Positions 2,110 to 7,891 of a stretch of 64,000 nt of DNA are shown here, in pieces. This DNA comes from Eledone cirrhosa (lineage: Eukaryota). The notes under the pieces are model-generated. The model was not told where the DNA came from, ran no database searches, and worked only from the letters and a program-made list of their open reading frames with translations. The stretch is from contig OZ024752.1 of the NCBI GenBank assembly GCA_964016885.1, positions 48,918,001-48,982,000 on the forward strand, in the 5' to 3' direction. Made by a program: the position numbers and the translations under genes. Within the stretch, counting starts at the first letter, position 1, and each line of letters opens with the position of its first letter.

Positions 2110-2380
2110 CGTCACACACACTGTAAAGTTGAGTCTCCCTGAGAATTATATTAAGTGTACACGAGTCTGTGGACTGCTCAGCCACTTACAGTATAGTAAA
2201 AGATGGACTGTACCTCTAATTCGAAGAGTTAAGTTTTGTCACACACTATGTAAAGCTGAATCTCCCTGAGAATTACATCAAGTGTACATATATCTGAGGA
2301 ATATTCAGCCACATACCTATAGTACAAGATGAACTCTACCTGTAATTCATTCTACATATCTGTGGAGTACTCAGCCACTT
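2110..2380. repeat. Diverged ~127-bp direct duplication plus a partial third copy
   Basis: gtcacacac...gtaaag.tga.tctccctgagaatta at ~2111 and ~2238; tctgtgga.t.ctcagccactt again at ~2360. Confidence 0.7.
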
Positions 2381-2899
2381 TGCAGTAATTTCATGAGCAG
2401 GCTATTCCATTGATCAAACAACTGGAACACTCATCATTGAAACTGATGGAGGTCCATTCCAGTATATATAATAAAATATAACATAAATATAATAAAATAA
2501 AATAAAATACAATAATATACAATAAAATAAAATAAAATAAAATAAAAAAATTCCCCAGATATTCTCTCTTCGCATTCCATAAAAGAAAGTAAGCAACGCA
2601 AAGCAAAGCAGAGAAAACTTTGGAAAGGAACATAGATAGATGTGTTTGCCTCGTGTTTGTGCCTTAGTCCCCAGCTAGCAACAAAAAGAAATTTGATTAG
2701 AACCTAAACTAACTTATTTACTGGCTAATGGATACAGCTTTTGATTCACTAAGAATACTACAACACAACAGCACTATATACAACATTACACCACTATATA
2801 CAACACTACACCACTAAACAGAACAGAAAAGCAATTAGCAGCAATTGCGTTAAATTCTCTAATGTAATAAGGACAAGCTTTGCAATCAGTAATTGATAG

Positions 2900-3425
2900 A
2901 TATACACATATAGATGTGTGTGTATATGTGCATATATATATATATGTATGTATGTATGTATATATGTATATATATATTTTTATATATGTATATATATGTA
3001 CATATATATATATATATGTATGTATATATGTATATATGTATATATATATTTTTTTATATATGTATATAAATATGAACTTATATATATATGTATGATTATA
3101 TTTATGTATATATATATATTTTTATATATGTATATATATATATGTACTTATATATATATATATTTATATATATATTTTTATTTATATGTATATATATATG
3201 TATTATATATATATATATATTTATATATGTATATATATATATGTATGTATATATATATACATATATAAAAATATATATTTTTATATATGTATATATATGT
3301 ACTTATATATATCTATATATCTATATATATCTATATATGTATATATATATAATGTATGTAATATATATATATATATTCATATACATACATATATATATAT
3401 GTAATATATATATATATATATATGT

Positions 3426-4330: not shown

Positions 4331-4795
4331 TATATAGATAGAAGTATGAACTTTTGCTCTTGATAAATATATATATAACATAAAACAAGGCTAAGATCTC
4401 TAGAAAAGGAGGCTACAAAAGTACAGCTATATCCCTGTTGTAGCCATACAACATCATACAAAATATACTTCTGGGGAATGACCTCTATCACATATTTTAC
4501 CTTTCACCTCTCACCTCTCAGTCAAAATGGCTAATAACCTATTTGTGGGCTCTGCTGATTAAGAATAATCAAGAAATATACACTGTTCATTCTCACAAGA
4601 GTTCTAAAAAATTAACTAATTAATTTACCTGTGTATATATATGTGTGTGTGTATGTGTATGTGTTGTAGTGTATCTGTATATATATATATATATATATAA
4701 ATGGACTAATTCCGTCGGAAAGGTCCAGGAAAAAAGAGTGCTCTATGTAGGTTATAGAGCTTATTAGTTATGTAATAAACAACATAAGATAATTA

Positions 4796-4855
4796 TTTCA
4801 TTTACCAGTGGTTTCTTGAAAGCAAACAAATTTGCTTTCAGTCATCAGAATGAAA
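4796..4855 (-). ncRNA. Type I hammerhead ribozyme motif
   Basis: Minus strand: tttcatt CTGATGA c-tgaaagcaaa-tttg-tttgctttca-a GAAA cc-act-gg TA aatgaaa. 7-bp stem I, 10-bp stem II, short stem III, GUA triplet. Confidence 0.8.
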
Positions 4856-4868
4856 AAATCCTGGTGTT

Positions 4869-4899
<31 letters not shown>

Positions 4900-5020
4900 C
4901 GTTAAGACCCTCTTCCTGCTATTTCAAGCGTTAATCTAATATATTCCTTCCCTATACTGTACTGATTGTGTTGTTATTTCCGTTTACCTTTTAGATATAT
5001 ATATATATATAAAACAAAGA

Positions 5021-5184
5021 AAGTACTCAATACTTAGGGTAATAGAGGGGGTAATAGGAAAATAGTCAGGACCCTGACGGCTGGGCTCCGGTCGTTACGA
5101 CAGCTACATCCAAATATGGATCTAAACTTTGAATTTAGCTGCTGAAATGGCCGGAGCTCAGCCGTCGGGGTCCTGACTCTTTTC
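5021..5184. mobile_element. (TA)n-flanked repeat family F with terminal fold-back (arms ~5058-5105 and ~5137-5184)
   Basis: Shares agtactcaatacttagggta.tagag with copies at ~22401 and ~30392; imperfect inverted repeat visible. Confidence 0.7.
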
Positions 5185-6380: not shown

Positions 6381-6442
<62 letters not shown>

Positions 6443-6554
6443 TAAGAGGAATTCCAACTTTGTCTGATTTACTCGTTTTATTTACAATCCTTTAAAATTT
6501 ATAATGGTATTATAATGAAATAGTATGGTAGAATATTAAATGTTAAGTGTTAAT

Positions 6555-6593
6555 TGAACAAGTACTTTCATGCTTTCGCAATCTTCAGGTTCA
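6555..6593 (-). ncRNA. Minimal type I hammerhead motif (left arm of fold-back)
   Basis: Minus strand: tgaac CTGAAGA t-tgc-gaaa-gca-t GAAA g-ta-c TT gttca; palindromic stem III region (aagtactt). Confidence 0.75.
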
Positions 6594-6632
6594 TAATGTG
6601 TGGTGACAGTCAAGTTTGCAATTTCAACATTA

Positions 6633-6671
6633 TGAACCTGAAGATTGCGAAAGCATGAAACTACTTGTTCA
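6633..6671 (+). ncRNA. Minimal type I hammerhead motif (right arm; stem III G>C mismatch)
   Basis: tgaac CTGAAGA ttgcgaaagcat GAAA ctac TT gttca. Confidence 0.6.
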
Positions 6672-6847
6672 ATTAACACTTAACATTTAATATTCTATCA
6701 TACTATTTCATTATAATACCATTATAAATTTTAAAGGATTGTAAATAAAACGAGTAAATCAGACACAGTTGGAATTCCTCTTATTAATATAATCTTCTAT
6801 ACACAATCACATACACCCGTGTATATTTATCTATCTATCTATATATA

Positions 6848-6897
<50 letters not shown>

Positions 6898-6911
6898 TAT
6901 ATATATATATA

Positions 6912-6963
<52 letters not shown>

Positions 6964-7062
6964 TATATATATATATATTAATATATACATATGGAAAAGA
7001 TAAAGTAAAGAAGAGTGCTCTATGTATAGTACAGAGCTATTTAATTACGTAATAAACAACAC

Positions 7063-7152
7063 AATATAATTATTCCATTACCAAAGGTTTCAGGAAACTA
7101 GACGATCCTTATAAAAACATCCAGCTTGTTTATCAGATGAAATAGTTATATT
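7063..7152 (-). ncRNA. Hammerhead motif with G8>A core change, same family as 4796-4855
   Basis: Minus strand: aatataactatttcat CTGATAA ... GAAA cc-ttt-gg TA atggaataattatatt; flank aagagtgctctatgta...gtaataaacaac is shared with 4735-4783. Confidence 0.6.
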
Positions 7153-7194
7153 TTGGATATAAGATTTGAAAGTAATATCTATTAAAAATGAAAG

Positions 7195-7435
7195 TGAGGT
7201 CGAGTTAAAATAACATCTTATATACAGTTCTTTTAATATCAGGGTTAGTTGATTGTCAGTATTGTATTTTATCACCACATTCAATCAACTAGGGTGTAAT
7301 AAGGCTTAAGGAATCAACATCAGTTGAACCTTTTCAGGTAAGATCTGGTGTCACATAATCTGGTACTCAATGGAATATTGGTTTGCTCATAAATAACAAG
7401 ACATAGTTTTATATATTATAAGGTATATGATATGC
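7195..7435 (-). pseudogene. Frameshifted GIY-YIG endonuclease remnant of a Penelope-like element
   Basis: Minus-strand reading across frameshifts: HIIYLIIYK/LCLVIYEQTNIPLSTRLCD/HRSY ... LILKELYIR. Resembles the PLE pattern IYxIxCxxCxxxYIGQTxxxLxxRxxxH...KExxxI and lies directly 5' of a hammerhead on the same strand. Confidence 0.5.
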
Positions 7436-7540
7436 AGACTCTGGTAGAGGAGTTATTGGTTGTCCAACATTGAATCAACAAATGTTGAGTGAATAAAATG
7501 CCATCTGATGATGCTGTGTCAGACTTACGTAATCTATTTA

Positions 7541-7715
7541 TAATTGTTTATACTTTTTGACACAAGGCCAGCAATTATCCCAGTGTATTACTGGTACTTT
7601 ATTTTATCGACCCTGTAAGGATGAAAGGCAGAGTTAACTTTGGCGGGATTTGAACTCAGACCATAAAGGGCCGTAACTCTTTTCTGCGTCCGACCCTCTA
7701 CCAGTACTGCCAATC
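7541..7715 (-). mobile_element. SINE family A copy
   Basis: Family A core and tail. Confidence 0.8.
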
Positions 7716-7891
7716 CTATTTATAATGACTCTGAAATGTACATAATAGTTGTTAATCAGTAAATTGAAATATGGAAATGCAGAACCATGTGATCATATAT
7801 ATATATATATTAATATGTGTGTGTGTATTTGTATATCTATTTCTCTCTGCCTCTCTCTCCCTCCCTAAATATATAATATATATATATATAT

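Follow-up and report, generated by a model that had tools for sequence, protein, structure and literature searches.

The window analysed here is a stretch of 64,000 nucleotides from Eledone cirrhosa (assembly GCA_964016885.1, contig OZ024752.1, positions 48,918,001 to 48,982,000), and all coordinates below are positions within it. A sequence-only reading had placed a decayed GIY-YIG endonuclease here, directly upstream of a hammerhead motif, and had linked both to a Penelope-like element (PLE). We found that the interval 6994-7480 is a composite of two repeats, the 3' end of a PLE (family A1) and part of a family that we term B. A copy of a further family, A2, lies 2.1 kb away, and a family C pair is found next to the A1 copy. 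The features of the locus are as follows.

4700-4870, minus strand: 5'-truncated 3' end of a younger sister PLE, probably of the Hydra clade (family A2), with (TA)n on both sides
4760-4740, minus strand: tail hairpin of A2, within the 4700-4870 copy
6439-6835, plus strand: pseudo-LTRs (pLTRs) of a Neptune-type PLE arranged as a fold-back pair, with a minimal hammerhead (family C), a neighbour outside the main finding
6840-6990, no strand: (TA)n tract receiving the A1 tail
6994-7222, minus strand: 5'-truncated 3' end (pLTR part) of a probable Hydra-clade PLE (family A1), assigned by consensus match and linkage
7017-7037, minus strand: tail hairpin in A1, common to A1 and A2
7071-7144, minus strand: type I hammerhead-shaped motif of A1, with a minimal helix III and the core change G8A
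7223-7414, minus strand: 3' non-coding part of B, aligned without gaps to consensus positions 157-348 (154 of 192 identical), with a TATA end at the A1 junction
7413-7481, minus strand: 5' part of B, with consensus positions 3-61 aligned at 7471-7413
7493-7544, plus strand: first segment of B's inverted arm, including the CUGAUGA half of its hammerhead
7545-7715, no strand: short interspersed repeat of 171 nt that interrupts B's inverted arm; the flanking 11-bp target duplication lies at 7534-7544 and 7716-7726
7716-7790, plus strand: second segment of B's inverted arm, including the GAAA half of its hammerhead and ending in (TA)n

Concerning family C, its sequence is 86-97% identical to eight endonuclease loci, in which the hammerhead is located 354-412 nt past the end of the ORF. 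This is a direct link from the window to a PLE for the third island.

Two repeats joined at 7223/7222

Genome searches were carried out with the best 40 candidates scored in each. With 7000-7540 as the query, there were 2098 candidates at first look, of which the best 40 were scored, and 45 genome matches were obtained. All 44 matches other than the locus itself started at query position 314 or later, corresponding to window position 7227 or lower. A second query, 7215-7520, gave 48 candidates and 41 matches with identities of 69-83%. We then compared the surroundings of 30 loci each for A1 and B, the window locus included, leaving 29 others per family. B did not precede A1 in any of the 29 other A1 loci, and A1 followed B in none of the 29 other B loci. 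Upstream of most other A1 loci, a conserved T-run and a TG-rich tract were recognized by eye. The other B copies end at or just short of the point equivalent to 7223, mostly running into microsatellite. As the join was absent in both directions, the B/A1 junction at 7223/7222 is private to the window locus among the loci examined.

The primary structure of family B was then examined. The B consensus, for which 28 plus 28 copies were used, has a length of 348 nt, with a CUGAUGA...GAAA core at positions 67-116 and stop codons in all six frames, and the copies have a common 5' start. An adjacent inverted (fold-back) arm was present in 22 of 54 B loci, and a tandem arrangement in none of them. In the forward arm of the window copy, a deletion of ~96 nt at 7413/7414 took out the whole hammerhead core. 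The repeat at 7545-7715 is presumably a SINE; repeats resembling it recur in many of the retrieved loci. B resembles the animal non-LTR retrozymes (PMC7229834; 10.64898/2026.07.22.740005) in being ~350 nt, low in GC and non-coding, with a type I core and PLE-like insertion ends; it differs from them in its lack of tandem copies (0/54), in its fold-back pairs (22/54) and in its age (~20% diverged). A coding parent of B was not found, either in genome searches or upstream of B copies. The peptide QSLHI, upstream of the B hammerhead, was considered as the C-terminus of an endonuclease and rejected, as B copies start ~40 nt before it and no conserved coding sequence lies upstream.

The GIY-YIG reading at 7150-7480

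The three peptides on which the endonuclease had been based do exist in the sequence: IIYLIIYK at 7431-7408, LCLVIYEQTNIPLSTRLCD at 7406-7350 and LILKELYIR at 7242-7216, distributed over two frames. After RLCD, the frame gives TRSY and not the HRSY that had been read, and stop codons separate LCLVIYEQTNIPLSTRLCD from LILKELYIR. Nor do the peptides derive from one element. IIYLIIYK spans the ~96-nt deletion in B, LCLVIYEQTNIPLSTRLCD corresponds to the 3' flank of B, and LILKELYIR, whose first half derives from the 3' non-coding part of B, spans the B/A1 junction. Because the window aligns with B positions 157-348 without gaps, the frameshifts that the reading needs are not the result of ORF decay.

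A frameshift-aware search had been proposed for 7150-7530. We examined 7150-7480 by frameshift-tolerant local alignment against 10 endonuclease domains from the same genome, and the similarity was at chance level. The best score of the window was 29, against a mean of 31 for shuffled sequences, and 144 of 200 dinucleotide shuffles scored as high. For comparison, the score was 27 for the B consensus and 319-417 for five decayed Hydra endonucleases. Endonuclease profiles were also used (Neptune, 39 sequences; Poseidon, 5; Hydra, 117; and Neptune plus Poseidon). With these, scores of 25-28 were obtained for 7150-7480, where shuffles averaged 24 and 46-108 of 300 reached the same level. For cross-clade controls, the Neptune, Hydra and mixed profiles gave 34-75, and the highest shuffle scores were 38-46. 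The Poseidon profile, made from five sequences, missed the Hydra controls, so a very remote endonuclease could escape detection by this approach. Pfam gave no match on three stop-free stretches of the window, a result of little weight because Pfam was likewise blank on true Hydra proteins. These results revealed that 7150-7480 holds no GIY-YIG remnant. The genomic consensus of 7223-7414, with its stops in six frames, had no endonuclease similarity either, the outcome that had been named beforehand as refuting the reading, and on this evidence the endonuclease call is withdrawn.

We regard it as extremely improbable that 7460-7150 represents the decayed C-terminal GIY-YIG domain of the element that carries the hammerhead. 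The short peptides have a superficial Y..Q.....L..R and L.ELYI look, and their spacing of ~75 codons resembles that in Poseidon-type endonucleases of the same genome. Nevertheless, the scores are those expected by chance, the reading runs across both a deletion and a junction specific to this locus, and the real endonuclease of the family, described below, differs in sequence and lies 1-3 kb upstream. It also seems highly unlikely that the 3' part of B is a very old endonuclease remnant of another clade, now fixed within a hammerhead repeat and no longer coding. Our panel consisted of Neptune, Poseidon and Hydra types only, and the absence of a coding parent for B would agree with such an origin. 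However, the stretch is located 3' of B's own hammerhead, where such PLEs have a non-coding tail, and the B consensus, interrupted in every frame, scored 20-27. Taking into account the composition of the locus, it is very probable that B (7223-7790), an older hammerhead repeat without coding sequence, lies immediately beside A1 (7222-6994), and that the GIY-YIG reading is a chance product of the non-coding flanks of B, the deletion and the junction. The site itself is ordinary, a cut-off PLE tail beside a different non-coding repeat. A false gene call is thereby removed, and the case is a useful warning that insertions nested within (TA)n tracts can look like a frameshifted protein.

Parent elements and hammerheads of A1 and A2

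In order to identify the parent of A1, we walked upstream from 20 A1 copies. The walk passed through a long TG/TA-rich UTR and reached an endonuclease in one locus (L114), which L111 and L128 share. A search with the L114 endonuclease listed 40 matches, from which 37 new loci were retrieved. An A1-type core was present downstream on the same strand in 11 of the 37, at distances of 183-3912 nt. Six of these cores were at least 82% identical over at least 87 nt; the other five, from sister subfamilies, were partial or only 71-78% identical. In a control set of 109 loci (437 kb) picked by other queries, there was one weak A1 match. As for A2, locus L153 links it to a related endonuclease. From 40 endonuclease matches listed on this side, 20 loci were retrieved, and A2 was found 980-2902 nt past its endonuclease in 11 of the 20, the seed locus included. 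Within the retrieved stretches, a same-strand downstream hammerhead was absent in 26 of 37 loci on the A1 side and 9 of 20 on the A2 side; truncation and nested insertions would explain such loci. The endonucleases of the A1 and A2 parents are 66% identical in DNA. A1 and A2 are sister families, and the proposal that both islands come from one PLE family did not hold.

The parent ORFs were recovered in pieces, with the motifs RWK, DKT, YRDD, CxCx5C, CxxC and CxH. RMRWK was observed in L268 and L216, and DKT, in place of DKG, in L270, L268 and L195. In the translations, a CxCx5C linker was present together with CxxC and CxH around the E and N of the endonuclease, and a CCHH pair was absent within the GIY-YIG core. 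Reverse transcriptase (RT) and C-terminal GIY-YIG domain occur in one ORF, as the 478-residue ORF of L258 contains both YRDD and the endonuclease. This was the longest ORF in the retrieved A1 and A2 parent copies, none of which had an unbroken full ORF; that of L270 has one in-frame stop, and the copies on the A1 side are fragmented. Both parents have a 3' hammerhead and insert into (TA)n. A protein search gave 907 relatives, of which the best 120 were 39-57% identical and nearly all unnamed. With tblastn at 1e-5, the parents did not match the Neptune or Poseidon loci L097, L092 and L102. Neither in the parent ORFs nor in three homologues did Pfam name an RT or a GIY-YIG domain, so the clade was called from motifs, homologues and a by-eye likeness to Hydra-1_Obim. 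On these grounds, the parents of A1 and A2 are assigned to the Hydra-clade PLEs.

The sequence-only reading was thus correct in regarding the islands as 5'-truncated 3' ends of endonuclease-positive PLEs, as shown by their linkage to a probable Hydra-clade RT/GIY-YIG ORF elsewhere in the genome, and the upstream PLE RT that it had suggested looking for was found, 1-3 kb upstream in longer genomic copies. The endonuclease is not directly upstream of the hammerhead; in these copies a microsatellite-rich UTR of ~1-3 kb intervenes. Two abundant hammerhead repeats can now be assigned to their parent retroelements.

A genome search with the Pfam GIY-YIG model, in which the best 150 of 10596 candidates were considered, retrieved Neptune and Poseidon types, and none of the 50 retrieved loci had A1, A2 or B downstream. 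A Neptune family with a TG-rich UTR (L086, L097 and L107) was tried as the parent of A1 and rejected, as its 3' end is different and its 30 loci contain no A1 match. In L097, the Neptune-type ORF is 1096 residues long, copies of its endonuclease region are 97-98% identical (602 candidates), and the 3' end contains CAGUUUGACGAG instead of the canonical core. In L086, a long fold-back duplication, apparently of a 5' PLE region, breaks the TG-rich UTR at ~2200-3260.

Craig et al. 2021 (PMC8557442) have published PLEs of the Hydra clade that have hammerheads and insert into (TA)n, one of them from octopus. Hydra-1_Obim from Octopus bimaculoides is described there with a preference for (TA)n and a 3' hammerhead, and RWK, DKT, CxCx5C, CxxC and CxH are given as features of the clade. 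A1 and A2 share with the clade, as there described, RWK, DKT, the CxCx5C linker and CxxC/CxH around the endonuclease E and N, and also the 3' hammerhead, (TA)n insertion, 5' truncation, inverted 5' copies and a one-sided tail. Their RT stretches resemble Hydra-1_Obim by eye, whereas the hammerhead listed for that element differs. In the part of the supplement of PMC8557442 that was covered, three A1/A2 motifs were absent, and A1 and A2 are other families than those listed in it. In addition, their 3' UTR is 1-3 kb and rich in TG/TA, in contrast to Hydra elements described in the same source as short (<3 kb), and their one-sided tail is 60-65 nt rather than the 30-40 bp of the general PLE scheme given there. 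A1 and A2 add two new families to a published clade that had already been described from octopus, and two Hydra-clade families with long microsatellite UTRs are a modest by-product of this study.

We next examined the hammerheads. In the window copy of A1, which has 12 mismatches to the A1 consensus over 229 nt and whose tail stops ~16 nt short of the usual end, a motif is present at 7144-7071, within the minus-strand hammerhead that had been called at 7063-7152. Its core lies at 7136-7130, GAAAC at 7091 and a GUA triplet at 7081-7079. The core reads CUGAUAA in place of the family form CUGAUGA, and the fold is no better than that of shuffled sequences (z -0.84; 41 of 200 shuffles as good). C3-G8 is a pair of the hammerhead core (PMC4209133). 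The change G8A breaks this pair, and the A1 hammerhead in the window is therefore likely inactive, as far as its sequence indicates. An intact core is kept in 20 of 29 other A1 copies. The hammerhead at 4700-4870 had been called intact, and this was confirmed for the motif at 4855-4795, whose core is unchanged and whose predicted fold is a three-way junction (z -2.21, equalled by 4 of 200 shuffles). The elements of a type I hammerhead (CUGANGA, GAAA, NUH and three helices) were present in this motif and in 24 of 24 A2 copies, whereas the window A1 copy departs from this core at G8. At the gathering score, Rfam reported neither the 7144-7071 nor the 4855-4795 motif, and at E<=1 a hammerhead was absent among the matches listed (150 of 310), which were dominated by microsatellite matches to miRNA models.

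The window copy of A2 has 4 mismatches to the A2 consensus over 181 nt. An A2 query gave 1168 candidates at first look, and full-length matches were 97-99% identical. The common tail leading into (TA)n at the A1 and A2 islands, noted earlier from the sequence, was confirmed, the two consensus sequences being 81% identical across 118 nt. The hammerheads of A1 and A2 resemble the PLE hammerheads of PMC4209133 in their type I topology, long helix II and tiny helix III. As in that study, they occur mostly as single dispersed copies from truncated PLEs, with some opposite-strand pairs; metazoan pLTR hammerheads are reported there to be mostly single motifs from truncated elements with low activity in vitro. 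The pair G10.1-C11.1, highly conserved in PMC4209133, is replaced. At the helix II positions adjoining the core, C and A occur in all 24 of the 24 A2 copies, and A1 copies mostly have A and U.

Some arrangements were seen besides these. In L146, 1.5 kb upstream of an A2 match, an inverted A2 pLTR is followed by the 5' two thirds of a Hydra ORF and then directly by the A2 hammerhead; this is an internally deleted element. Upstream of the A2 copy in the window there are two more short repeats, at 5036-5170 and 4930-4990, each in (TA)n, and sequence like these recurs in L035, L055 and L153.

Proposed insertion history and the tail hairpin

Identity to the consensus is 80% for B, 95% for A1 and 98% for A2 in the window, and the relative ages (B older than A1, A1 older than A2) fit the following order of insertion. 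B would have entered a (TA)n tract first, in the form of a fold-back pair, after which a short repeat may have split the inverted arm and the deletion of ~96 nt may have removed the ribozyme of the forward arm. Later, a Hydra endonuclease likely nicked the terminal TA tract of B, an RT would have copied ~230 nt of A1 RNA from the 3' end before stopping, and the cDNA may have joined the target via TATA microhomology. The copy at 4700-4870 would have come from A2 by the same route. Hammerhead processing of the parent RNA is a proposal of the literature. According to PMC8557442, PLE insertions are often 5'-truncated and often have an inverted 5' copy and a one-sided tail.

An alternative for the junction is that a longer A1 and B were once apart, and that a later deletion brought the end of B beside A1 position 1. 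Another deletion did occur 190 nt away in B, and a target duplication would be unreadable in TA repeats. We nevertheless consider this rather unlikely, as B retains its full usual 3' end and meets A1 at a shared TATA, as expected for a truncated insertion. A second alternative concerns the source of the short A1 and A2 copies, which could derive from a separate small non-autonomous, retrozyme-like RNA instead of truncated copying of a PLE transcript. The candidates are numbered in thousands at first look (2098 for A1, 1168 for A2), and a derivation of non-autonomous hammerhead repeats from pLTRs is proposed in 10.64898/2026.07.22.740005. On the contrary, the 5' ends vary, reaching back by degrees through the TG-rich UTR into the ORF, and tandem arrays were absent among the A1 and A2 loci viewed by eye, making this origin quite improbable. 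Truncated copying of the PLE transcript is the reading we prefer.

The 3' ends of the copies were also examined; their proportions are biased, because loci were chosen by full-length queries. A1 copies prefer to end at consensus positions 185 (8 of 57) and 245 (25 of 57), and the hairpin begins at 186. In A2, the preferred ends are 106 (13 of 48) and 171 (25 of 48), with the hairpin at 111. One class of A1 and A2 copies thus stops 0-4 nt before the hairpin, and the other 60-65 nt farther. The ends of B cluster at 179-192 (26 of 47) and 338-348 (9 of 47). A 13-nt piece of the hairpin is also present in the published Hydra-1_Ajap consensus. A limited literature search found no paper on the families A1, A2 and B or on a Hydra tail hairpin. 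These observations raise a possibility, doubtful when its parts are taken jointly, that the hairpin of A1, A2 and the sea-cucumber Hydra element is an RNA signal placing the start of reverse transcription, that A2 transposes with a hammerhead without the usual core-adjacent pair, and that B is a short non-coding passenger whose 5' end is fixed and which has a one-sided extension of 160 nt. If true, A2 would be a clean family for testing the roles of PLE hammerheads and tails. With its copies 97-99% identical, A2 is young enough for tests of hammerhead activity and of the start of PLE reverse transcription.

In two loci of a sister Hydra subfamily (L220 and L221), the tail hairpin occurs twice, 86-153 nt apart. 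Elsewhere in the window, a relaxed scan gave two more minimal hammerhead-like cores of another family, at 53595 on the plus strand and 10569 on the minus strand, and a near-perfect inverted pair at 52545-52782 contains core-like text on both strands.
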